Of a stretch of DNA of 64,000 nucleotides, positions 4,303 to 58,943 are shown piece by piece. The DNA is from Parcubacteria group bacterium GW2011_GWC1_36_108 (lineage in GTDB: Bacteria; Patescibacteriota; Minisyncoccia; Moranbacterales; GWC2-37-73), in NCBI GenBank assembly GCA_000991245.1, contig LBRD01000005.1, positions 10,944 to 74,943 of the forward strand, in the 5' to 3' direction. Within the stretch, counting starts at the first letter, position 1, and every line of letters begins with the position of its first letter. The position numbers and the translations under genes are program-made. The notes beneath the pieces are model-generated. The model was given only the letters and a program-made list of their open reading frames with translations. It did not search any database and was not told the DNA's origin.

Positions 4303-4959
4303 TTAGGCTGTCATTTTCTCAACATAGTCAATGACTGCATCCATAATAATTTTGCGAACTTGCTTGCCGCTTGAATATGCGACTGGCTGCACCTTGCCGT
4401 TAACAAGAATACACCCACTCCACGCATCAAGCATGATTTGAATAATTTCCTGAGCACCATCACTGATGGAAAATTTGATTCCTGGAAGTTCCTTGATTGA
4501 AAGATCTAGACCGACATCAAGCACAAACCCCCATGACCTGACCTCCAAACGAATTCCGTCCTCCAGGCATTGAGAAGTTATCTCCTCAACAACTTCCTGC
4601 TGCCTTTTCTGCCGACCAGTTATCATAGCGTTCAGTGAATTTTGATTTGCAATCCTTATTGACTCAAGACCATTCATCCATGACAATAATGCTATTGACT
4701 TATCATCACGCAGAGCAATGCCAAGTGGAAATCTTGCCTCAATCATCCTATTCTGATCGCATCCCCAATCTCCAGATTGCACAATTGCAGAAACAAGTGT
4801 GGGATTATCAAATTCCAATCTGATATCACCCATGTGAACACGTCCTAAAATCATCGCCAGATCATTAATTGCATTTTCAGAACACTTGAATGTCATTATG
4901 ACTGTTGGACCAATTCCAGGATACCGCTTACCCATTTCTCTTAAGATCTCTGCTCTCAT
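4303..4959 (-). CDS. hypothetical protein on a GC-richer island (~45% GC) with a strong SD
   Basis: Start chosen at MRAEILREMGKRYPG, which is preceded by GGGAGG 5 nt upstream. The longer ORF-track N-terminus has no RBS. No recognisable domain. Confidence 0.6.
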   Translation of the reverse strand: MRAEILREMGKRYPGIGPTVIMTFKCSENAINDLAMILGRVHMGDIRLEFDNPTLVSAIVQSGDWGCDQNRMIEARFPLGIALRDDKSIALLSWMNGLESIRIANQNSLNAMITGRQKRQQEVVEEITSQCLEDGIRLEVRSWGFVLDVGLDLSIKELPGIKFSISDGAQEIIQIMLDAWSGCILVNGKVQPVAYSSGKQVRKIIMDAVIDYVEKMTA

Positions 4960-12127: not shown

Positions 12128-12736
12128 TTAATTAGGGATTGCTGGAAGATTACCTGGCAGTCCAGCGCCTGCTGGCAAACTAACATTACTCAATGATTCA
12201 AAAGTTTTTTTCATAATTTCACATTGATCTTCAAACACAACATTTGAAGGAATGTTGAAATCCACATCGCCTGCAGGAACACAACTTGATTTTTCATCAC
12301 TATTTTCAATCTCCTCTTCAATATTTGGAACAGCATCGGTTATTAAATTTTGTTGTTGTTCGGGAAGATTTGTTTTCAAACTTTCCAAACAAGAAGTTGC
12401 CATTTTGAATCCTTTTGTTTCTCCTTCCACCCAAAAATATGTTGTTTCTCCGTCAAAAATAACATTTTCTTTTTTCTTTTCAACATCAGAAACTGCTTTA
12501 AATTTTTTCCCTTGGACATATGCCACTGAGACTTCCCCGTCTTTTGAAGTTGAAGTACATTTCATTTTCGAGCCCAAGCCAATTGCTTCCTTGATGGAAT
12601 TTACAACTCCACCATTTTCAGTCGGCGCGCTTTTTTCTGCTGGCTGCACAGGAGTTTGAGTTTCTTTTTGACTTCCACATCCTGAAAAAACAAGTGCCGA
12701 GCAAACAACCACCGCTGACAAAAATATTTTTTTCAT
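12128..12736 (-). CDS. hypothetical secreted lipoprotein
   Basis: Signal peptide plus lipobox (LVFSGCGSQ). Confidence 0.65.
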   Translation of the reverse strand: MKKIFLSAVVVCSALVFSGCGSQKETQTPVQPAEKSAPTENGGVVNSIKEAIGLGSKMKCTSTSKDGEVSVAYVQGKKFKAVSDVEKKKENVIFDGETTYFWVEGETKGFKMATSCLESLKTNLPEQQQNLITDAVPNIEEEIENSDEKSSCVPAGDVDFNIPSNVVFEDQCEIMKKTFESLSNVSLPAGAGLPGNLPAIPN

Positions 12737-13191: not shown

Positions 13192-13860
13192 ATGGCCAGA
13201 GGAAAAGGAAATGTGCACAAGATGCATGATGGCTACAAGCGACATCAGCATAGGACTTCAACACCGCAATTGTTGGCTCTCGCCAACCAGGAAGAAACTG
13301 AGAGGGCCCGTGAGCTCATGTTTGAGGATATGGCTGCGGACGAGGAACGAGAAAGTATGTATGATGCTCTTTTCGGCGTCGATGACGCTACAGACGAACA
13401 ACCCGAATGCGATTTTGGTTTTGACGATTCTCCTTATGGCGGTTTCAGCTTCGAGCTTGATCCGTTTGACAGAGATGATGATTACAGTTTTGAACCGCGA
13501 CCGGAAGATTCCTGGCAAAAAAACGACCAATATGACGCCGGCGATCGAGCCATTGGAACATTACGCTATTACATGGAGGACGTAAAGCCCGATGAAATTT
13601 CATCAAAAGATGTGGGCTGGATTGCATCAAAATATACATTCCTCTCTGCGATGGTTCTAGGTGGTTCATTTGCTGGAGAACTGTTTGAAGAACCAACAGC
13701 TATCTTCGGACGATATACAATCGCCTTAGAACAAAAGCTCAGAGAAGCCCAGATTGAATTCAAAACTTATCATGGGCTCACAGAAAAAGGTTGGCAGACG
13801 CTTAAAGAATTTCACATCCCCGGTGAAAACAATTTAGAGATGAATGGTGTTCACTGCTAG
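13192..13860 (+). CDS. hypothetical acidic protein on a GC-richer island (~48% GC)
   Basis: 222 aa; strong SD AGGAAGGAG 8 nt upstream of ATG; Asp/Glu-rich; no recognised domain. Confidence 0.6.
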   Translation: MARGKGNVHKMHDGYKRHQHRTSTPQLLALANQEETERARELMFEDMAADEERESMYDALFGVDDATDEQPECDFGFDDSPYGGFSFELDPFDRDDDYSFEPRPEDSWQKNDQYDAGDRAIGTLRYYMEDVKPDEISSKDVGWIASKYTFLSAMVLGGSFAGELFEEPTAIFGRYTIALEQKLREAQIEFKTYHGLTEKGWQTLKEFHIPGENNLEMNGVHC

Positions 13861-13928: not shown

Positions 13929-14396
13929 CTATTTAGTTTTTTGTTTTATCCAATTCACATATCCCCCATTTGCCTCAACTTCAATTTTCATGATGCAGGA
14001 CTGACTCATTTCCACATTTCTTTTTCCCGCAAAAAGAAACCTGGAGGAAAGAAAAGCTCGCACCTGATGAAGATACTGTGGCAAAAACTTCGCTCTTCGC
14101 TAAAATTTACACTGCGCGCCTACGTCTGCTGACGGGCGCTACGTTTCAAAATTTCTTAACGCTCATCACTCGTTTTTTGCCTACGTACTTCATATGGTGC
14201 AAAGGGAATGCAAAATGCAAGATGCAATAAGTTTTTCCTCAAGCAAATGTTCAGCAACTTTTTTCGCTTCTTTGAGGTTTTTGTGAGTGATGTAGAAGAT
14301 GATGGATTTTATATTTCTTTTAAAATCTATTTCTATACTCGCTTCTTTTTTGATAAATTCTCTCATTAAACCCACCCTGTTTGACAAATTCTTCAC
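13929..14396 (-). pseudogene. cutA: cutA (divalent-cation tolerance protein) remnant, frameshifted and truncated
   Basis: N-terminal CutA-like SIIFYITHKNLKEAKKVAEHLLEEKLIASCI runs into a stop. The CutA-like C-terminus (VLHHEN / IEVEANGGYVNWIKQKTK*) is in other frames further downstream. The 5' end overlaps the neighbouring four-helix-bundle gene. Confidence 0.4.
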
Positions 14397-14877
14397 TTAG
14401 AGTTGCGAGTTGTTTGTCGAGAAGATAATTTGTTTGATAAATGACGCAGATGGCAACATTAGCAGCTGACTCAGGATCGTTCAAATAGGACGAATAAGAC
14501 TGAAAGGACGGATTATTATAGCACAAGTTTCGCACAATTTTTGCCTGCGGAAAATCTTTCGCCCAAAGTTTCAAATTTCTTTGTCGAAGAAAATCCTCGT
14601 AGTCCAAAAGTAATTCTTCCAAACTTGCACGTGCGACGTTTGTCAATTTGAGCTCCGTCTTTTTTGAAGTTCCTGCTGCCCGACTTCCTTCAGCAATATT
14701 TTGTCTGCCACTGCGTGCCGCTTGATCCATCTGATCGCGAGTCCTGCTTTTATAATCAATGTATCTTTTTGTAAATTCAACAGTAATATCGTAGACAATC
14801 GTCGACATCTGAAAGGATTTCAGATCGCGATAGCCACCATGCGTGAACATTAAATTTTCATCAGTCCTATTTGTCAT
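14320..14877 (-). CDS. four-helix-bundle protein (23S rRNA intervening-sequence protein family, long variant)
   Basis: 185 aa; core motif SGRQNIAEGSRAAGTSKKTELKLTNVARASLEEL. Confidence 0.7.
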   Translation of the reverse strand: MTNRTDENLMFTHGGYRDLKSFQMSTIVYDITVEFTKRYIDYKSRTRDQMDQAARSGRQNIAEGSRAAGTSKKTELKLTNVARASLEELLLDYEDFLRQRNLKLWAKDFPQAKIVRNLCYNNPSFQSYSSYLNDPESAANVAICVIYQTNYLLDKQLATLSEEFVKQGGFNERIYQKRSEYRNRF

Positions 14878-16903: not shown

Positions 16904-17146
16904 ATTTTTATAACCCCACAAATCTACAAATCTTTTACGAATATACAAATTAAATTCGTTTTTAAAATATTTGCAAAATTATAGGTTAAATTAATTATTG
17001 CTTATTATTTTTTGTTATATGTTACATGTTATATGTTTTATGTTATACTTATATTAGAGCTTGATACATCGCTATCTGCTTCGCCCTACGGGATATTTAA
17101 CTTATGCCCGTATGGGCTTTTTTATTTATAAAGTTTTCTTCAACCA

Positions 17147-17195
17147 CTTTATAAACTTTATAACTTTATAACTTTATAACTTTTTACTCTACCAC
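17147..17195. repeat. tandem octamer repeat (CTTTATAA)x4-5 between grpE and dnaK
   Basis: actttataactttataactttataactttttac; the inverse-orientation tract (TTTATAAAG)n is at 18534-18572. Confidence 0.5.
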
Positions 17196-18527: not shown

Positions 18528-18533
18528 ATAAAA

Positions 18534-18572
18534 TAGTTTATAAAGTTATAAAGTTTATAAAGTTTTTAAAGC
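18534..18572. repeat. tandem repeat (TTTATAAAG)x4 in the hrcA promoter region
   Basis: gtttataaagttataaagtttataaagtttttaaag. Confidence 0.5.
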
Positions 18573-18651
18573 AATACGAGCCCAAACATTACTTTATAAA
18601 CTTTTAACTTTATGAACCTTAAGAACTTATGCATTCATTATAATCCATCCG

Positions 18652-18678
18652 TTAGCAGTCGTCAAGTCCGAGTGCTAA
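18652..18678. promoter_or_regulatory. CIRCE (HrcA operator) upstream of hrcA
   Basis: TTAGCAGTC-N9-GAGTGCTAA, 125 nt upstream of the hrcA ATG. Confidence 0.75.
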
Positions 18679-18704: not shown

Positions 18705-18742
18705 AGAAAAAAGCCCCGATTCTCAGATGAGAATCGGGGCTC
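18705..18742 (-). terminator. strong rho-independent terminator closing the yidD/sORF operon
   Basis: On the minus strand: gccccgattctcatctgagaatcggggc followed by ttttttc. Confidence 0.65.
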
Positions 18743-18764
18743 CTATTATTACAAGAGATAATTG

Positions 18765-18959
18765 TTATTTACAGCGGACACAAATTCCACTGCCGGCACA
18801 ATCATGATTTCTTGTTTTGCCAGGAATCGCCCTGACAAGTAAATCGTGATTAGGACGCCCCTTCCCCTGAAAAACAAGGGCGGAAAGAAAAAGTCCCCTT
18901 GAAAAAACAACCACTTTGTTACCAACGAATACAGACGGCATTGAAACTTGTGTACTCAT
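18765..18959 (-). CDS. small Cys-containing hypothetical protein (sORF-1, 64 aa)
   Basis: GGAGG SD 6 nt upstream of ATG; C-terminal HDCAGSGICVRCK; GC-rich island. Confidence 0.45.
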   Translation of the reverse strand: MSTQVSMPSVFVGNKVVVFSRGLFLSALVFQGKGRPNHDLLVRAIPGKTRNHDCAGSGICVRCK

Positions 18960-19013
18960 AGTCTGCCTCCAAGCAACGAGATCAGCGCATTGCGCTGTAA
19001 AAAACTTTTAAAA

Positions 19014-19127
19014 TCAATCCTTCTCTCTGAACGAATCTGTATTGTCGGCAGGCACACCTCTTCTACAAATATCTTGTATGCAAAGAGCGCCATATGTAAC
19101 AACACAAACTCTGATACGTTTTTTCAT
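19014..19127 (-). CDS. small Cys-containing hypothetical peptide (sORF-2, 37 aa; not in the ORF track)
   Basis: AGGAGG SD upstream; MKKRIRVCVVTYGALCIQDICRRGVPADNTDSFREKD. Confidence 0.4.
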   Translation of the reverse strand: MKKRIRVCVVTYGALCIQDICRRGVPADNTDSFREKD

Positions 19128-19143
19128 TCTTTTTCCTCCTTTT

Positions 19144-19329
19144 TTAAGTTAACAGCTCAACCGATGCTGTTGCACCCAGAACAAAAGGTTCTTCTTCAGA
19201 AGATCTTGGAATTTCCTCGCCAACAGTTAGTTGATGAGAACATTCAACAATATCTATATTGTTAGAACTTTCTTCGCACAGCTGTTTTGTAAGAGTATTA
19301 TGACACACGTAGGTATTCCCTCCTTTCAT
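19144..19329 (-). CDS. small Cys/His-containing acidic hypothetical protein (sORF-3)
   Basis: AGGAGGG lies 9 nt upstream of an internal GTG at 19308, so the true start is probably that GTG (VCHNTLTKQLCEESS...); C-terminus is Glu-rich. Confidence 0.45.
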   Translation of the reverse strand: MKGGNTYVCHNTLTKQLCEESSNNIDIVECSHQLTVGEEIPRSSEEEPFVLGATASVELLT

Positions 19330-19336
19330 TTTTTAT

Positions 19337-19474
19337 TTAGTACTCGAGCAGGGAAAACAAGAAAGTAAAGAAACCTGGATTTCGATCTTTATCCTCATCC
19401 ACAATATCCCGCGTTACCTTCCTAAATTCCTTATCATCATAAACACCAGCGCAACCTCCTGATGACACACACAT
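19337..19474 (-). CDS. small hypothetical peptide (sORF-4, 45 aa; not in the ORF track)
   Basis: GGAGGT SD 7 nt upstream; MCVSSGGCAGVYDDKEFRKVTRDIVDEDKDRNPGFFTFLFSLLEY. Confidence 0.4.
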   Translation of the reverse strand: MCVSSGGCAGVYDDKEFRKVTRDIVDEDKDRNPGFFTFLFSLLEY

Positions 19475-19554
19475 TCTCACACCTCCATTTTCAAATTTTT
19501 AAGTCTACTATATTATATCTAAAATTCCCAATTTCGTATTTAATGTTCCAAGCT

Positions 19555-19809
19555 CTATGCTCCATGTTTCGTGTCTTTCGGAACTGGATCATATCCACCA
19601 TCATTCCAAGGATGACAACGCACAAATCTCTTTATTCCCAGCCACATTCCTTTCAAAATACCAAATCTTTCCACAGCCTGATATGTATAATGACTGCAGG
19701 ATGGATGAAAACGACAAATTCTACCTCCCCAAAACCAAGAAGGAATGCCGTGATCAAGCGAAAAAACCTTCTGATAAATCAATATTAAAAATAATATAAC
19801 TTTTTTCAT
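19555..19809 (-). CDS. yidD: membrane protein insertion efficiency factor YidD
   Basis: 84 aa; [46 protein letters not shown] matches the YidD/PF01809 signature. Confidence 0.8.
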
Positions 19810-19818
19810 TTATTTGCA

Positions 19819-19847
19819 ATACTACACCATAAAATGACTTTTGTCAA
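19819..19847 (-). promoter_or_regulatory. sigma70-type promoter for yidD plus the four sORFs
   Basis: TTGACA-17 nt-TAGTAT on the minus strand. Confidence 0.5.
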
Positions 19848-19973: not shown

Positions 19974-20456
19974 ATGAAAAAAATTATTGGAGTAGGGCTA
20001 CTTCTTTTTACCTCTATTAAGGGTATTCCAAAAATGTACACTGTCGAAGAGTTAAAAGCAAAACCTTCTATATTTAAGGAGGTTGGGATGATAGGACCTC
20101 CCTTCGAAACTATGGAAGAAAAAGACGACGACAACATCGAAACAACAATAACCAGATTGATTCGAGAAGAAACGCCATTTTCTATTAGTGAAATTCGCCT
20201 TCATGAGATAATTTCCGAAGATTTTAACCTCATACCAAAAAGACCGGACATTTTCACTCGTTATGCGTATGCTTCACTAAAAAGTGATCCACCAAAAGAA
20301 ATCTTGGAGTTGCCAGATATTGACATTAGTTTTGCTGGTTGGCATCCACTTTGCGAAATGTATGACAAATTTACCAGAGTTGAAACGCTGCCTATTCTGA
20401 ATCATTTCAAAAGAAACTCACACTATGCAAAATTATGCCATCTCATTTTGTCATAA
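19974..20456 (+). CDS. hypothetical secreted protein
   Basis: 160 aa; AAGGAG SD; N-terminal hydrophobic signal-like segment. Confidence 0.55.
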   Translation: MKKIIGVGLLLFTSIKGIPKMYTVEELKAKPSIFKEVGMIGPPFETMEEKDDDNIETTITRLIREETPFSISEIRLHEIISEDFNLIPKRPDIFTRYAYASLKSDPPKEILELPDIDISFAGWHPLCEMYDKFTRVETLPILNHFKRNSHYAKLCHLILS

Positions 20457-22358: not shown

Positions 22359-22814
22359 CAGCTTATTAGGCTTTAGCTTATTAGCTTTTTAGAAAATGCG
22401 AAAATGCATTCGTTAGCTTATTAAGAAATACAACAGCATGATAAATTCATATAAAGATCTCATTGTTTGGCAGAGATCAATGGAGCTTGTTGTTGAAATT
22501 TATAAAGTTACTGAAGAATTTCCAATAGCGGAGTTGTATGGTATCATATCCCAAATGCGCAGAGCTGCGGTCTCGATTCCTAGCAATATAGCAGAAGGAA
22601 GAAAAAGAAGTACGAGAAAAGATTTCAGACAATTTTTAATTATAGCGTACGCCAGCGCTTCTGAATTGGAAACGCAAATTGAAATATCAAAACGCTTAAA
22701 TTTCATTGAAGTTGACAAATATACAAAAACTGATGCACTATTACTTGAGACAATAAAAATGCTAAACAAAATGATTTCCTCCCTAAAAAGCTAACGCCTA
22801 ATAAGCTAAAAAAT
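22359..22814 (+). repeat. F-element copy F1: imperfect 19-bp inverted repeat (cagcttattaggctttagc / gctaacgcctaataagcta) enclosing a four-helix-bundle ORF and abutting the cysS ATG
   Basis: Same arms as the ORF-less hairpins at 24758-24850 and 41521-41600. Confidence 0.55.
22438..22794 (+). CDS. four-helix-bundle protein (23S rRNA intervening-sequence protein family, short variant)
   Basis: 118 aa; IPSNIAEGRKRSTRKDFRQFLIIAYASASELETQIEIS. Confidence 0.8.
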   Translation: MINSYKDLIVWQRSMELVVEIYKVTEEFPIAELYGIISQMRRAAVSIPSNIAEGRKRSTRKDFRQFLIIAYASASELETQIEISKRLNFIEVDKYTKTDALLLETIKMLNKMISSLKS

Positions 22815-32918: not shown

Positions 32919-34232
32919 TTACACACAATTTTTTAAAAATGTTTTTTGGAGTTCCCGCTTTTTCAAAATTTTCATCTTGAGAACATATGTATCATTGTCA
33001 CGAGAAAGTTTCTCTAGAATTTTATTAAATTCATATACTTTTGGATTTACTTCCAAGGCTACTTTATTAATTCCTAATAATTTTATACCATCCAATGTCC
33101 TAACTCGCGAGAGTGCAACGTATCCCATTCCGTATTCAAAAGATTTAGACAAATCCATTTCAACCGCATCCAAGGTCATTCCCTGACTTTTATGCACTGT
33201 GATTGCCCAAGCAAGTCTTAGTGGTATTTGTGTTATGGTGGCAAGCGCTGATTCATTTTCTTCGATTGACCATTTCTCAGGATTTGCAATTATCGTTTTA
33301 CCAGAAAAAGTTTTTACTATCGGTGTACCAGCATGATCAAAATTAGTCACCATTCCCAATGTTCCATTAACATAACCTTTTTCAAAATTATTTTTCACAA
33401 ACATAACCACCGCACCTTTCTTGAGAAATAATGTTTCCGGAGCAAGACATCCCTTTTTTACCGCAGCTGCCACAAATTCATTTCCCTTGGAACTCATCTC
33501 AAAAATTCTAGCTTCTTCTTTTATCTTCTTAAGTTCCAAATTATTAATAGCATCAACATTTATATTATGTGTAAATAACTTGGTTGGCGTAACACTATTT
33601 TTTATATTTTTATTTTGACGTGACAAAATTAAATCTAAGGTTTTCTGATTGCAAGACTTGTTTCTGATGTCGTTTAAAATTTTAAGCATCTGTCCATCTT
33701 CTTGTCTATGTTGTTCTTCCAAATAACAAATTTTTGGAGCCATTTCTTGCCAAGCCGCAGATTCAATAACAAAGCGAGACTCTTCTCCAGATTTTGCCAC
33801 TGGTGGCAATTGAAAAAAATCTCCACACAAAATAACCTGCAATCCACCAAATGGCGAAAATGGCTCTTTAAATTTTTTGCAAATTGCATTAATAATATCG
33901 AGTTGATGCGCATGAAGCATAGACACTTCATCAATAATAAGCACGCTCGTGGTTGCAAAGCGTTGTTTATGATAATGTCTTTTTTTGAGCTTAGTATAAT
34001 CCTCTTCCGTGAATGTATCACTGATCCCCATTCCGGACCAAGAATGAATAGTTTGACCATTCATATGGGTCGCTGCAATTCCGGTTGAAGCAGTAATCGC
34101 CACACCAATACTATTCTCTTTTAGATATTCAATATATTGCTTTAACAAATATGTCTTGCCAGAGCCAGCAGGTCCCGTCAAAAAAACGTTATGTCCAAGC
34201 TTTAAAATATCGAGTGCTGTTTTTTGTTTCAT
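32919..34232 (-). CDS. PIF1/RecD-like ATP-dependent DNA helicase (AAA_30)
   Basis: Walker A FLTGPAGSGKT; LIIDEVSM; CGDFFQLPPV; C-terminal SH3-like fold. Confidence 0.8.
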   Translation of the reverse strand: MKQKTALDILKLGHNVFLTGPAGSGKTYLLKQYIEYLKENSIGVAITASTGIAATHMNGQTIHSWSGMGISDTFTEEDYTKLKKRHYHKQRFATTSVLIIDEVSMLHAHQLDIINAICKKFKEPFSPFGGLQVILCGDFFQLPPVAKSGEESRFVIESAAWQEMAPKICYLEEQHRQEDGQMLKILNDIRNKSCNQKTLDLILSRQNKNIKNSVTPTKLFTHNINVDAINNLELKKIKEEARIFEMSSKGNEFVAAAVKKGCLAPETLFLKKGAVVMFVKNNFEKGYVNGTLGMVTNFDHAGTPIVKTFSGKTIIANPEKWSIEENESALATITQIPLRLAWAITVHKSQGMTLDAVEMDLSKSFEYGMGYVALSRVRTLDGIKLLGINKVALEVNPKVYEFNKILEKLSRDNDTYVLKMKILKKRELQKTFLKNCV

Positions 34233-34320
34233 AAAATAAGCTTATCCTGTTTAGCTATTTTATTCAAGAGACAAAAAACAATCCCAATTAAATGGGACTG
34301 TTTTTGAGTTTCTGTTTTTT

Positions 34321-36417
34321 CTATTTGCTCGCATCAATCATCCTGCGAACTTCATCTAGATTTACTTGTGGACGCGTGCGCTGGGGTTTAAATTTTTTGG
34401 GAGCAATGTGCTGCATTTGCGAAAGTGACATTGGACGATCTTTTGAAACATAGGCTTTGTGTTCAACTTTTTTTTCAGCTGGCTGCGTCACTTTTTGCAC
34501 TGGCTTATTTTCTTGCACTGTTTTAATTGGTTGCCTTGTTGGTTGCTCAATTGGCGCAGCAAGATCAGCATTTTCTTCTTGCTGTCTTTGCATTTTTCTT
34601 TCTTGATTAAGTTTTTCCTTGGCAGTCATCCGTTGATATTCTTTGAGACAATCTTTGCAAAAGGTCGGCCTTTTTCCATCTGGCTGAAAAGGAATTTGAA
34701 TGTTGTCTCCACACATATCACAAATTGCATCAAATTTTGGCCTGTCATCAACTGGTTTGACGTAATAGTCAGGATTTTCCTCCTCTTGTTGCTGAATTTG
34801 GCTTGCTTGAGGCTGCGGTTGATTATATTCTCCAAGATCATCTTGATTTATAGGTGCTTTTTCAGTTGTTACCTGCGTCTGGATCACTTTTTGAGGTTGC
34901 GAAGCACCAAGGGGCTCTGGGATGCTTACAGAGGCCTGCGGCTCATTTTTTTGCTCAGCTGCGACTGGTTGCTGAATTTGAGGTTTTTGCACGGTTTGCT
35001 CAATTCTAGGGGCAAAGTTTTGATGAGCACTTTGTGCAGTCTGAGGCTGCGGAGCTTTGTATTGAACATTGTTTGGATTTTGAATAATTTGACCTGTTGG
35101 AGGCTTGTTGACCGTTTGAAAACCAGCAGCAGGCATAACACCAGCCCAACGAGAAATTTTATCTTCAACTTCTTCTTTACTAGAAGCATAACGCTCACGT
35201 GAGTTGGCAATGATCTTTTCTTCATTTTCGGCAGTATCTTCAATGTACACAGGCGGCAACACTTGAGCAGAAAAAGCATCCCCCGCAATTCCGTCAATCA
35301 TCAATTTCAGATAAATGTTATATTTTGGCAAATTCACAATATCATTTTGCACAAACACGGGCATAAATTCTTTTTCCAAAAATTCAGCATCCATCGCACC
35401 AACACGAAAAGAAATGATTGTGCCAGCATTTCCAAAAATAGCATCACGAACTTTTTCATCAATCTGAGTTATATATTGATTTGCCAAAATCAAATTGAGA
35501 CGATATTTTCGAGCCTCAGACAAAATATTAGCAAAAGATTCTGTTGCGAAGTTTTGAAACTCATCAACATACAAATAAAAATCCTTGCGCTGATCTTCTG
35601 GAATGTCCACGCGTCCCATTGCCGCCAGCTGAATCTTGGTAATCATCATAGCTCCCAAAAGCGCACCATTGTCCTCTCCAATTCGTCCTTTTGAAAGATT
35701 TATGATTAAAATCTTTCGAGTATCCATCGCATCGCGAATATCAAAAGAAGATTGAGTTTGACCAACAATATTTCTAATCAATGAGCTGGACAAAAATTGT
35801 CCAACCTTATTTTGAATCGGAGAAACAACTTCTTGCAAAACTTTATCACTCCATTTTGGAAATTCATCAACCCAGAATTGCCTGATCACAGGATCAGTAA
35901 CTTTCTCCACCACACGCTCGCGATATTTTTTGTCCACCAAAATTCTCGTCACTCCAAGCAAGGTGCTCCCAGGATATTCCAACAAAGCCAAGATTGCATT
36001 ACGCAAAATATATTCCAATCGAGGTCCCCAAGAATCAGCCCAAATCTTTTTGAAAACGCCAATGAGTCCCGATGCTACCAAATGTCTATAATCAGGATCA
36101 ACCGATTCCATCACATTAAAAGCCAGCGGATAATTTTGATCAGCCGGATTGAGGTATATAACATCATTAATACGATTTGCAGGAACCGCTTTCAAAAGTT
36201 TTTCAGCAGTGTCTCCGTGAGGATCGATATAGCAAATTCCGTGACCATTACGAATATCTTGCACCACCAAATTCTCCAGCAGGTTTGTTTTACCCATACC
36301 GGTTTTTCCGATGATATACATATGTCGAGTTCGGTCATCAGTTTTTATTCCGAAAACTCTCTCTTGATTTCTAAAGTTCGTTTTTGCAAAAAATGCAATT
36401 TCGTTGTTATTTGCCAT
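34321..36417 (-). CDS. TraD/TraG/VirD4-like (T4SS coupling-protein-like, AAA_10) P-loop ATPase with a Q/P-rich linker and C-terminal zinc ribbon
   Basis: Walker A IIGKTGMGKT; Walker B YLYVDEFQNF; C-terminal CDMCGDN...CKDC. Confidence 0.7.
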   Translation of the reverse strand: MANNNEIAFFAKTNFRNQERVFGIKTDDRTRHMYIIGKTGMGKTNLLENLVVQDIRNGHGICYIDPHGDTAEKLLKAVPANRINDVIYLNPADQNYPLAFNVMESVDPDYRHLVASGLIGVFKKIWADSWGPRLEYILRNAILALLEYPGSTLLGVTRILVDKKYRERVVEKVTDPVIRQFWVDEFPKWSDKVLQEVVSPIQNKVGQFLSSSLIRNIVGQTQSSFDIRDAMDTRKILIINLSKGRIGEDNGALLGAMMITKIQLAAMGRVDIPEDQRKDFYLYVDEFQNFATESFANILSEARKYRLNLILANQYITQIDEKVRDAIFGNAGTIISFRVGAMDAEFLEKEFMPVFVQNDIVNLPKYNIYLKLMIDGIAGDAFSAQVLPPVYIEDTAENEEKIIANSRERYASSKEEVEDKISRWAGVMPAAGFQTVNKPPTGQIIQNPNNVQYKAPQPQTAQSAHQNFAPRIEQTVQKPQIQQPVAAEQKNEPQASVSIPEPLGASQPQKVIQTQVTTEKAPINQDDLGEYNQPQPQASQIQQQEEENPDYYVKPVDDRPKFDAICDMCGDNIQIPFQPDGKRPTFCKDCLKEYQRMTAKEKLNQERKMQRQQEENADLAAPIEQPTRQPIKTVQENKPVQKVTQPAEKKVEHKAYVSKDRPMSLSQMQHIAPKKFKPQRTRPQVNLDEVRRMIDASK

Positions 36418-51970: not shown

Positions 51971-52124
51971 AAATAAAGTTATAAAGTTCATAAGGCAAAT
52001 TGAACACAAACCAAAACCCTATTTTATAGGGCTAACATTTTATACGTCTTTAGTGTTTGTTTCTTTGCTTATTCTATATCAAAAAACCCCTCCCGTAAAG
52101 GAAGGGTCTGGTTTGTAAAATTTG

Positions 52125-52643
52125 CTAAAATGATTGCAGCACGATTGATCCATCGGGGGCGACGTCGGTGCAGGTTCCGCGTAGGAATGCTTTTTTTCCA
52201 ATAGTAAGCATTGTTTTGATTTTATCAGCAATTTGACTGTCTGATTTCACAATCACACGCACGGGATATGCGGCGTCATTGTCCAAATTACCTTTGGCAT
52301 ATGTGCCCCCGGTTGGAATGCCCTCTATGATTTGCACACTCCAAAACAAATTTGTGTTGGGTGTCATTGTTTTGTTTTTGCATTGTTCCCATTGCGATCT
52401 AATAAGTTTTTTTCTTTCTTCAGAAGTTTCTTGCACAGCTGGAGCTTTCTTTGGCTCAACAGTTTTGCTTTGACTTGGATTTGCAACTGTAGGGTTTAAA
52501 GATTTTACCTCAGCGCTTGCTTGAATCGTTTTGGGAGCAACAGCAACAGGGGCAGGTTTTTTCTTAGCAAAAAGAAGAAATGCTCCAGAAACAACTCCCA
52601 AAAAAATAACAAAACCTAGGACGATTTTTATTTTTGTATCCAT
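52125..52643 (-). CDS. hypothetical secreted/membrane-anchored protein
   Basis: 172 aa; N-terminal TM or signal segment; Pro/Ala/Val-rich linker. Confidence 0.55.
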   Translation of the reverse strand: MDTKIKIVLGFVIFLGVVSGAFLLFAKKKPAPVAVAPKTIQASAEVKSLNPTVANPSQSKTVEPKKAPAVQETSEERKKLIRSQWEQCKNKTMTPNTNLFWSVQIIEGIPTGGTYAKGNLDNDAAYPVRVIVKSDSQIADKIKTMLTIGKKAFLRGTCTDVAPDGSIVLQSF

Positions 52644-58133: not shown

Positions 58134-58943
58134 TTATTTTTTACCTCCATTGATTACTAACATTGCCTTATCCTTAATTGATTTTGGAGCATCGGGATGA
58201 TTTTTGCCAGAAGGATATGCCCAAATGGCATCGAACAAAACTTTTTCATCATATCGATAATTCTCTCCCCTTTTCGTCCCTGGGTCGTTGGTAATAAATT
58301 CTTTTGTTTTTGCGTCATAATCAACAAGCACAAGCATATGTGTGATTGGTCCCGGCTCCGTGAAGTTCGGATTTTTAAGAGCGCGCCCAAAAATTGGAAC
58401 CAAAATAATATTTTGTTTTGCAAGTTCTTTTTTCAAATCATCCAAAATAAAGCTCTTACTGATTGTGAAATTTTTAAAACCATAAAAATCAACGAGAATC
58501 TTACCAACATCTGAAACATCCGTGTCAATAAAATATCCGAAAGTTTTTTCTTCAAATTTCGAGATATCAAATATTTCTTGCTGAGCATCATTCGGCGAAG
58601 AAAAAGATTTACCTTTAATCCACCTCATTGCCATAGCCACCGATGCCTCCTCGCAACCATTTTGGTTTCGCTCATCACTCCAATCGCCCAACGGAGCTTG
58701 CGAAGTAAACGGGACTTTGTTTTTTTCTACTGGCTTAATTTGAACTTGTTCTTCCTTTTGTTTTTCAACTAACTGACTTTTTTTCTCATTTTCATTTTGA
58801 ACATTTTTTTCTTCTGGCAAAATTTGCCTTTGATCATTAACGTCTTGTTTTTCTTGCGCAAAATTTTCGCCCCGAAAAAACAAACCCGCAAATAATGCTG
58901 CAATTAAAAATACTATTCCAAAAAAAATCTTTCGCTTATTCAT
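58134..58943 (-). CDS. membrane-anchored papain-like peptidase C39-like domain protein
   Basis: N-terminal TM helix; catalytic-like Q...NGCEEASVAMAMRW and HMLVLVDYD. Confidence 0.55.
   Translation of the reverse strand: MNKRKIFFGIVFLIAALFAGLFFRGENFAQEKQDVNDQRQILPEEKNVQNENEKKSQLVEKQKEEQVQIKPVEKNKVPFTSQAPLGDWSDERNQNGCEEASVAMAMRWIKGKSFSSPNDAQQEIFDISKFEEKTFGYFIDTDVSDVGKILVDFYGFKNFTISKSFILDDLKKELAKQNIILVPIFGRALKNPNFTEPGPITHMLVLVDYDAKTKEFITNDPGTKRGENYRYDEKVLFDAIWAYPSGKNHPDAPKSIKDKAMLVINGGKK

Follow-up and report, generated by a model that had tools for sequence, protein, structure and literature searches.

What are the four small open reading frames (ORFs) that follow yidD in Parcubacteria group bacterium GW2011_GWC1_36_108, and what does their position between yidD and the heat-shock gene hrcA tell us about them? 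We analysed a 64,000-nt stretch of this genome (contig LBRD01000005.1, positions 10,944–74,943; hereafter the window), in which the region 18705–19847 carries, on the minus strand, yidD, the ORFs named sORF-4, sORF-3, sORF-2 and sORF-1 in the order of reading, and a terminator. An initial annotation of the region had described the ORFs as a row of Cys-rich peptides and had proposed several functions for them. It was right that they are likely small proteins, and that yidD-linked arrays of this kind recur; each specific function that it put forward is unsupported. We favour, with a probability of roughly 0.55, the reading that yidD and the four small proteins form a unit within an accessory-gene slot conserved in Moranbacteria, in which mini-proteins with Cys motifs turn over.

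The array was first compared with what chance would produce. After yidD, four non-overlapping small ORFs follow on the same strand where they had initially been placed (Table 1), with spacers of 7, 16 and 54 nt, and every one has a GGAGG Shine–Dalgarno (SD) sequence 6–10 nt before a start codon. That each ORF has its own SD was thus described correctly except for the start of sORF-3, where the SD serves the GTG at 19308 (54 aa) and the ATG at 19329 (61 aa) has none. An SD is missing from most long core genes of the window, also as described, and strong-SD small ORFs outside long genes number seven in the whole 64 kb (both strands), four of which are this array. Non-overlapping ORFs with a strong SD and a length of 37 aa or more were counted both in the region and in 5000 dinucleotide-shuffled versions of it: the region has four, and no shuffle had more than two, a number reached by 14 of them. 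As the array never arose in 5000 shuffles, we take it to be real and not a chance product. The in-frame codon usage of the four sORFs is that of the host (scores of +0.19 to +0.39 bits/codon), compared with −0.05 for a stop-free antisense control and a mean of 0.47 for true genes (5th percentile 0.19). All four peptides are already deposited in GenBank as hypothetical proteins, from Moranbacteria GW2011_GWC2_37_73 and from third-party-annotation metagenome-assembled genomes; each is a singleton cluster at 90% identity, and no two of the four are paralogous. As an observation in its own right, strong SDs in the window mark chiefly hypothetical or accessory genes (for example those at 13192, 19974, 27365, 44197 and 48666), and tRNA synthetases, chaperones and Sec components mostly have none, which suggests that two regimes of translation initiation may operate in this genome.

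Two properties ascribed to the region disappeared on recalculation. It had been called a GC-rich island of about 47%; the GC content of 18705–19847 is 38.2% against 36.9% for the window, and sORF-1 alone reaches 43.6%. In relatives, the corresponding gaps average 1.5 points above their flanks and fall below them in 5 of 21 cases. These figures do not sustain a foreign-DNA argument from a GC island, which was dropped. Nor are the peptides especially Cys-rich, each having two or three Cys residues, with a CxxC motif in sORF-1 only.

Table 1. Features of the yidD unit and its boundary, with nucleotide identity to the relatives' loci L004 and L123
Feature	Positions	Strand	Description	Identity to L004	Identity to L123
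Putative sigma-70-like promoter	19819–19847	minus	TTGACA-17-TAGTAT, upstream of yidD; 10/12 matches in consensus scan		
yidD	19555–19809	minus	84 aa; putative membrane protein insertion efficiency factor; PF01809	94%	95%
Conserved box	19512–19531	minus	TTGGGAATTTTAGATATAAT in yidD–sORF-4 spacer; contains TATAAT		
sORF-4	19337–19474	minus	45 aa; GGAGG 7 nt before ATG; GenBank US57_C0009G0018	87%	67%
sORF-3	19144–19329	minus	61 aa (ATG 19329) or 54 aa (GTG 19308); SD before GTG	86%	none (unalignable)
sORF-2	19014–19127	minus	37 aa; GGAGG 7 nt before ATG; GenBank US57_C0009G0020	85%	none (unalignable)
sORF-1 slot leader	18960–19013	minus	6-bp GC hairpin at 18983–18997 (CAGCGC-AAT-GCGCTG), then ATCTCGTTGCTTGGAGG (SD)	95%	89%
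sORF-1	18765–18959	minus	64 aa; GGAGG 6 nt before ATG	none (unalignable)	none (unalignable)
Intrinsic terminator closing the unit	18709–18744	minus	16-pair stem (8 GC), 4-nt loop, TTTTTT tail	none	90%
CIRCE operator overlapping hrcA promoter	18637–18678	minus	TTAGCACTC-N9-GACTGCTAA; right-hand boundary of the slot, outside the unit		
hrcA, first 400 nt				91%	94%

The unit is well delimited at both ends. The site proposed as the promoter was recovered by the consensus scan, in a stretch 94% identical to L004, and would be active as the yidD promoter. The gene itself was correctly named: its product matches the Pfam family over profile positions 1–67 of 67 (E = 2.5e-26, 91.7 bits, cutoff 27), making it a full-length member; its ratio of nonsynonymous to synonymous differences (pN/pS) is 0.08–0.09 against L004 and L123, and an identical YidD occurs in about 40 assemblies. 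The box TTGGGAATTTTAGATATAAT in the following spacer has 0–1 mismatch in the L004 and L012 lineages, in surroundings that are just 79–83% identical; the promoter scan did not call it, and it may be an internal promoter with TATAAT as its −10 element, or an operator, separate from the yidD promoter. The window scan found no terminator between yidD and sORF-4, and co-transcription of the sORFs with yidD is therefore plausible. The terminator after sORF-1, initially credited with a 12-bp stem, is stronger than that (16 pairs, −27.4 kcal/mol, z = −6.8) and has the GC-rich stem-loop and T-run of an intrinsic terminator; it is about 90% conserved in L012/L123 and absent from L004.

Directly beyond the terminator lies the hrcA–grpE–dnaK operon, under the control of CIRCE (controlling inverted repeat of chaperone expression). 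The CIRCE consensus is TTAGCACTC-N9-GAGTGCTAA; the copy here, TTAGCACTC-GGACTTGAC-GACTGCTAA at 18678–18652, has one mismatch and overlaps the −35 element of an hrcA promoter with 11/12 consensus matches (TTGACG-17-TATAAT). With genes for HrcA, GrpE and HSP70 downstream, the arrangement is that of a CIRCE/HrcA heat-shock operon, and the CIRCE/−35 27-mer is invariant in six Moranbacteria genomes. On the other side of the unit, the gene upstream of yidD is divergently oriented (19974–20456, plus strand; 160 aa) and preceded by a strong SD; its only match, to NUDIX, stays below threshold (E = 0.26).

The four ORFs differ in how clearly they appear to be genes. sORF-4 is, by its pattern of substitution, clearly protein-coding: against L004 its pN/pS is 0.17 in frame, compared with 1.3 and 3.0 in the shifted frames, and changes are in excess at the third codon position (4/2/12 over positions 1/2/3). 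It is acidic, has an invariant N-terminal C-x5-C, and alone among the four belongs to a family spread over several genomes, with orthologues in L004, L012/L123 and, more distantly, L009 (best phmmer E-values 3.5e-28 to 1.9e-05). M1, C2, G7, C8 and the acidic RDIVDE core are invariant in this family. A single-sequence AlphaFold2 model (mean predicted local distance difference test score, pLDDT, 67.6) leaves the Cys/Gly residues 1–13 disordered and folds residues 14–31 and 33–44 into a helical hairpin. A HMMER search of 1.8 billion representatives returned one real match, the L012-type orthologue, plus one spurious match. The latter, P0006, a tandem-repeat surface-type protein of 1243 aa, was considered as a relative and rejected, since seven weak matches of 26% identity inflate its E-value.

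sORF-2 is basic, has an orthologue in L004 only, with a conserved core VVTYGALCIQDICRRGVPADN (C-x4-C), and is probably protein-coding, judging from a pN/pS of 0.30 in frame (1.72 and 0.48 off frame) and an excess of changes at the third of the three codon positions (5/7/13). For sORF-3 the coding status is ambiguous. This very acidic ORF likewise has an orthologue in L004 only (86% nucleotide identity, one in-frame 3-nt indel); its codon-usage score is +0.36 to +0.39 bits/codon and it is called as a gene in public assemblies. Its pN/pS against L004 is 0.42 in frame versus 0.49 in the +1 frame.

sORF-1 is a basic orphan with the C-terminus H-x-C-x5-C-x2-C-K and a codon-usage score of +0.19; no relative was found among 16,466 local ORFs, viral contigs or plasmids, and its single-sequence model is unusable (pLDDT 52.5). 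The leader in front of it is better conserved than the ORF. Its leader/SD 23-mer (18966–18988), which occurs once in the window, is unchanged in the lineages of L004 and L012 although the ORFs to either side of it differ; the ORF that follows it there, of 81 aa in L004 and 75 aa in L012, is unrelated to sORF-1. The leader stem is extended symmetrically to 8 bp in L012; that the hairpin is thermodynamically special was rejected on a fold z-score of −0.4, which is not statistically unusual. A candidate family with the pattern V.[HQ]GK ... C-x3-C-x3-C, which would have joined sORF-1 with the final ORF in many of the gaps, dissolved into singletons when searched with phmmer against the 16,466 ORFs.

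Relatives of its YidD place the window in Candidatus Moranbacteria (Patescibacteria/Candidate Phyla Radiation, CPR), and the position of the array recurs throughout the group. In every Moranbacteria locus reaching both genes, yidD is followed by hrcA with a gap in between. Because the CIRCE/−35 27-mer is invariant, it was used as an anchor and 51 metagenome loci were recovered; 28 non-redundant yidD...CIRCE/hrcA loci have gaps of 196–1970 nt, with YidD identities of 57–96%. The gaps cannot be aligned at the nucleotide level except in the closest relatives. Almost every one holds small ORFs that have an SD and lie on the same strand as yidD; in some relatives the gap is only 196–436 nt long and holds few or no ORFs. 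The slot was seen again in L138, and a full-text literature search found no description of such a yidD–hrcA locus. The initial annotation had suggested searching related genomes for yidD-linked arrays, and had held that it would be refuted if none of the sORFs were conserved at the protein level; arrays of small Cys-motif ORFs were found there, and sORF-4 is conserved as a protein.

As a class, the ORFs of the slot are enriched in Cys motifs. In those with a strong SD (n = 58), Cys makes up 5.7% of the residues, CxxC motifs number 0.94 per 100 aa, and 72% of the ORFs have at least four Cys residues, compared with 3.1%, 0.14 and 17% for off-frame and antisense ORFs of the same gaps and 0.8%, 0.04 and 29% for long genes of the same loci. 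The class is mostly basic (69% net positive), and a transmembrane (TM)-like segment occurs in 4 of 83. phmmer comparison revealed several recurrent families, among them the sORF-4 family in four lineages and a family with the pattern C.G.M....C.GC.F...C in seven. The latter has only seven members in a large protein database, none with a Pfam domain; the flanks could be read for one of the new members, and it too lies between yidD and hrcA. The recurrent families were found nowhere other than in this slot.

Comparison of the closest lineages shows that the content of the slot is replaced while its borders stay (Table 1). In L012, a different Cys-rich family stands in for sORF-3 and sORF-2. In L004, an extra ORF (4382–4546; gap positions 148–312) lies between the post-yidD box and sORF-4 and encodes a highly basic protein of 54 aa with five Cys residues (MANKKNK...CPH...C...CECCPHRK), with a distant relative in L088; this ORF, L004_148, gave a weak zinc-ribbon-type match to Cas12f1-like_TNB (E = 0.0047, below the curated cutoff). 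Against L123, sORF-4 has a synonymous divergence (pS) of 0.74, where yidD, hrcA and grpE have 0.19–0.44. This contrast, which rests on only 43 codons, would point to the replacement of an allele more than to simple relaxation. The sORFs were also considered as frameshifted remnants of a larger gene or as having cryptic homology to other gaps, and this was rejected, as tblastx recovered sORF-4 orthologues and shared non-coding junctions only. Apart from the ORFs, CCTAAC/CCTACCC-type motifs (TAGG/TTAGG on the opposite strand) occur in tandem right behind the stop codon of yidD, within some 40 nt, in L004, L006, L008 and L088, and in the window just upstream of dnaB (24856), alaS (30622, minus) and cysS (22815); they are possibly a lineage-specific intergenic signal.

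Taken together, these results fit a single expression unit in which yidD and four separately translated small soluble proteins would be transcribed up to the strong terminator. The unit occupies an accessory slot between the slowly evolving yidD and CIRCE/hrcA that is found throughout Candidatus Moranbacteria. Entire ORFs and alleles are exchanged in this slot, and most likely they recombine at short stretches of conserved sequence, of which the leader of sORF-1 and the terminator/CIRCE region are examples. The slot would be filled by heterogeneous, lineage-restricted, cytoplasmic and mostly basic mini-proteins of 35–130 aa, each with its own strong SD and expressed together with yidD or just after it. 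Because the class is enriched in Cys pairs, many of these proteins probably serve as small binding modules, either metal-binding and zinc-knuckle-like or thiol-based. In the present genome, sORF-4 would be a conserved acidic two-helix protein and sORF-2 a small protein with a conserved C-x4-C core, with sORF-3 weakly constrained and possibly decaying and sORF-1 a young orphan.

Several points weigh against this reading. Transcription and translation of the unit are deduced from its DNA. With two or three Cys residues per peptide there are too few for a monomeric Cys4 zinc site, and so the zinc-knuckle assignment of the class transfers weakly to these four members. No function-bearing homologue was found in Pfam, NCBIfam, PHROG or Rfam, and the structure predictions for sORF-1 and sORF-4 are of low to moderate confidence. 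sORF-3 shows neither frame-specific constraint nor an excess of third-position changes (8/6/9), and its Cys18 and His31 are lost in L004. sORF-1 is without a homologue anywhere, and what speaks for it is its SD, its codon usage and the conserved slot in which it stands. The small number of codons behind the sORF-4 contrast belongs here as well.

A rival reading takes the yidD–hrcA gap for tolerated junk or a zone of decay, a long 3′ region of yidD in which ORFs come into being and die; some or all of the ORFs would be non-functional and sORF-4 the sole real gene. The near-equal pN/pS of sORF-3 in and out of frame, its lack of codon periodicity and the orphan status of sORF-1 are what such a zone would produce; the gap content is replaced even where yidD is 95% identical, and the short gaps of some relatives show that the content is dispensable. 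Decay would, however, hardly leave four strong and well-spaced SDs in an SD-poor genome, an arrangement found in 0 of 5000 shuffles, nor host-like in-frame codon usage in all four sORFs. The enrichment in Cys and CxxC is specific to the SD-led frame over 28 loci, sORF-2 is under frame-specific constraint, and in the sORF-1 slot conservation of the leader and SD is perfect. We therefore consider a junk zone unlikely.

Cassette-like swaps between conserved flanks, together with the raised pS of sORF-4 against L123, would also be expected of mobile or conflict-related cargo that has settled at a hotspot of recombination, for instance toxin/antitoxin-like peptides, proteins acting against defence systems or small regulators derived from phages. 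Phage genomes commonly encode small basic CxxC proteins, and SD usage in the array resembles that of the other accessory and hypothetical genes of the window and not that of its core genes. A phage or plasmid origin was nevertheless rejected: no sORF matched a PHROG family or phage DNA, and sORF-1 has no relative among viral contigs or plasmids. No integrase, transposase or repeat boundary lies within the gap, its GC content and codon usage are host-like, and the recurrent families are seen in this slot alone, so that cargo of this kind is rather improbable. The locus shares with variable hotspots and integron cassettes the conserved flanks, the replacement of whole ORFs and a short conserved junction upstream of the sORF-1 slot. 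It is not an integron: the window annotation contains no integrase, there are no attC-like border repeats, a single slot is seen, and the leader junction of sORF-1 is unique in the window and kept only in the closest lineages.

About as doubtful is a diversification locus, in which a conserved scaffold of promoter box, SD-leader hairpin and terminator would serve to swap in, and strongly translate, constantly changing Cys-motif mini-proteins; these would act in the episymbiosis of CPR bacteria, either as post-translationally modified peptides or as effector/immunity molecules. If this were true, a follower-type precursor would be a possible role for sORF-4, and the perfectly conserved leader could be a site of recombination or regulation.

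One of the functions initially proposed is that of precursors of ribosomally synthesized and post-translationally modified peptides (RiPPs); the reading considered here includes bacteriocin-type precursors and supposes maturation in trans by enzymes encoded elsewhere. Cys-rich RiPP precursors are known as SCIFF peptides or ranthipeptides and as sactipeptides, and bottromycin-type precursors have an N-terminal core followed by a follower peptide. The present peptides resemble them in length (40–65 aa), in Cys residues near a terminus that is also rich in Ser and Gly, and in rapid diversification, and could carry Cys-based thioethers or heterocycles. The disordered Cys/Ser/Gly N-terminus of sORF-4 (CVSSGGCAG), ahead of its conserved acidic helical part, could in the same way be a core with a C-terminal follower, and a Peptidase_C39_2 gene is present at 58134–58943. 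That gene, the only one loosely related to such a pathway, is unlinked and 39 kb away. Pfam annotation of all called genes in the 64-kb window, covering radical-SAM/SPASM, YcaO, LanB/C/M, cyclodehydratase and ABC exporter classes, revealed no RiPP maturase, protease or exporter, confirming that no modifying enzyme is near, and none was found within ~4 kb on each side of yidD in the relatives' loci. No sORF matched a precursor family in NCBIfam or Pfam (SCIFF, NHLP, Nif11 and similar). The sORFs are not the paralogous tandem copies of precursor arrays, and none has a double-glycine or signal-type leader. In the sORF-4 family the Cys-bearing end is the invariant part and not the variable one, the reverse of a leader/core pattern. 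The RiPP reading is thus unsupported, and we regard it as very unlikely.

The other two proposed functions fared no better. Bacteria, archaea and phages have zinc-ribbon and zinc-knuckle mini-proteins (CxxC...CxxC), which the locus class resembles in its strong enrichment in CxxC pairs and basic residues. The ORFs of the window differ from them in having one Cys pair or triad each: none has two CxxC or C/H knuckles with four ligands, the sole possible four-ligand site being the H-x-C-x5-C-x2-C of sORF-1. None of the four matched a zinc-ribbon profile in Pfam, and the models give no confident fold of this kind (low confidence for sORF-1, a helical hairpin for sORF-4). The zinc-ribbon assignment is therefore not supported. 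As for membrane-insertion substrates of YidD, no TM-length or signal segment was detected in any of the four sORFs, the highest 19-residue Kyte–Doolittle means being −0.10 (sORF-4), 0.34 (sORF-3), 1.06 (sORF-2) and 1.49 (sORF-1), all below 1.6. Classically, yidD belongs to an rpmH–rnpA–yidD–yidC cluster. The unit agrees with known YidD systems in that its first gene encodes a full-length YidD, and departs from them in that the window annotation contains neither rnpA nor yidC, from which yidD stands apart, and that unrelated, non-membrane small ORFs follow.

Because the 861 nt after yidD fold with a z-score of −6.1 against shuffles, a structured-RNA reading was tested, according to which the region would be one large structured non-coding RNA or would consist of several cis-regulatory RNA elements, the ORFs being incidental. 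A sliding 300-nt scan located the signal mainly at the terminator and the hrcA 5′ untranslated region (UTR) with its repeats (z of −5 to −9); over sORF-1 and sORF-2 (18800–19300) the values were −2 to −3.5 and over sORF-4 close to 0, and values of −5 to −7.5 also occur in intergenic regions elsewhere in the window. The extended leader stem of L012 preserves pairing, as a functional RNA would; the leader fold as such has the unremarkable z-score given above. Rfam 15 gave no match at gathering score in the whole window, and the sub-threshold matches of the region at permissive E-values are driven by the terminator, none of them credible. Nucleotide conservation is confined to the closest relatives, and what is conserved are protein-level and third-position patterns. 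On the Rfam result, the place of the fold signal and the coding signatures, one large structured RNA was rejected, and the reading as a whole is extremely improbable.

Regulatory leader peptides acting by ribosome stalling, such as the Cys-responsive attenuators reported from mycobacteria as short, leaderless ORFs with consecutive Cys codons upstream of the genes they regulate (bioRxiv 10.1101/834739), resemble the sORFs in being short Cys-containing ORFs inside an operon and are barely credible here, where the ORFs are SD-led with scattered Cys codons and no consecutive runs, no cysteine-metabolism gene lies downstream, lengths of 37–64 aa and the protein-level conservation of sORF-4 are atypical, and the anatomy does not suit attenuation because the array ends at a strong terminator followed by hrcA's own promoter and CIRCE.

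Several further features of the window deserve mention. AT-rich arrays of ACTTTATAA units and their inverse occur in the hrcA 5′ UTR (18529–18608), between grpE and dnaK (17146–17166) and upstream of secA (51979–51996), with nine matches against 0.3 expected and strong fold z-scores; they are possibly an element, regulatory or terminator-like, that genes for chaperones and secretion have in common. A near-identical 22-nt leader (CAAATCTTATTTAA..GGGTAA-ATG) stands upstream of the unrelated minus-strand genes at 12736 and 43836, and another (.CAATTTAACGGGGCAAGAAA.-ATG) upstream of the unrelated genes at 52643 and 58030; these pairs may be repeated 5′ leader or promoter modules. The genes at 22438–22794 (plus strand) and 14320–14877 (minus strand) match 23S_rRNA_IVP, and the former also weakly matches bAvd, the accessory-protein fold of diversity-generating retroelements; as the window annotation contains no reverse transcriptase, such a retroelement is unlikely here. 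Finally, the minus-strand genes at 32919–36417 encode a zinc-finger-bearing, TrwB/TraG-like coupling protein of 698 aa, a PIF1/AAA_30 helicase and then a GIY-YIG protein, and may be the remnant of a conjugative or mobile element.

The slot is a fresh instance of the familiar small orphan genes of variable regions and as such of modest interest. At present it opens no new biochemical question, and RiPPs, the most exciting reading, are without positive evidence. If the favoured reading of a conserved accessory slot is true, the locus would be a well-bounded case of the birth, replacement and loss of small genes in an ultra-small CPR genome, and SD-led translation in these genomes would mark accessory small genes in preference to core genes. 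With its fixed flanks (yidD and CIRCE–hrcA) and strong translation signals, the slot would then offer a natural system for following how orphan mini-proteins originate and, as in the case of sORF-4, become fixed.

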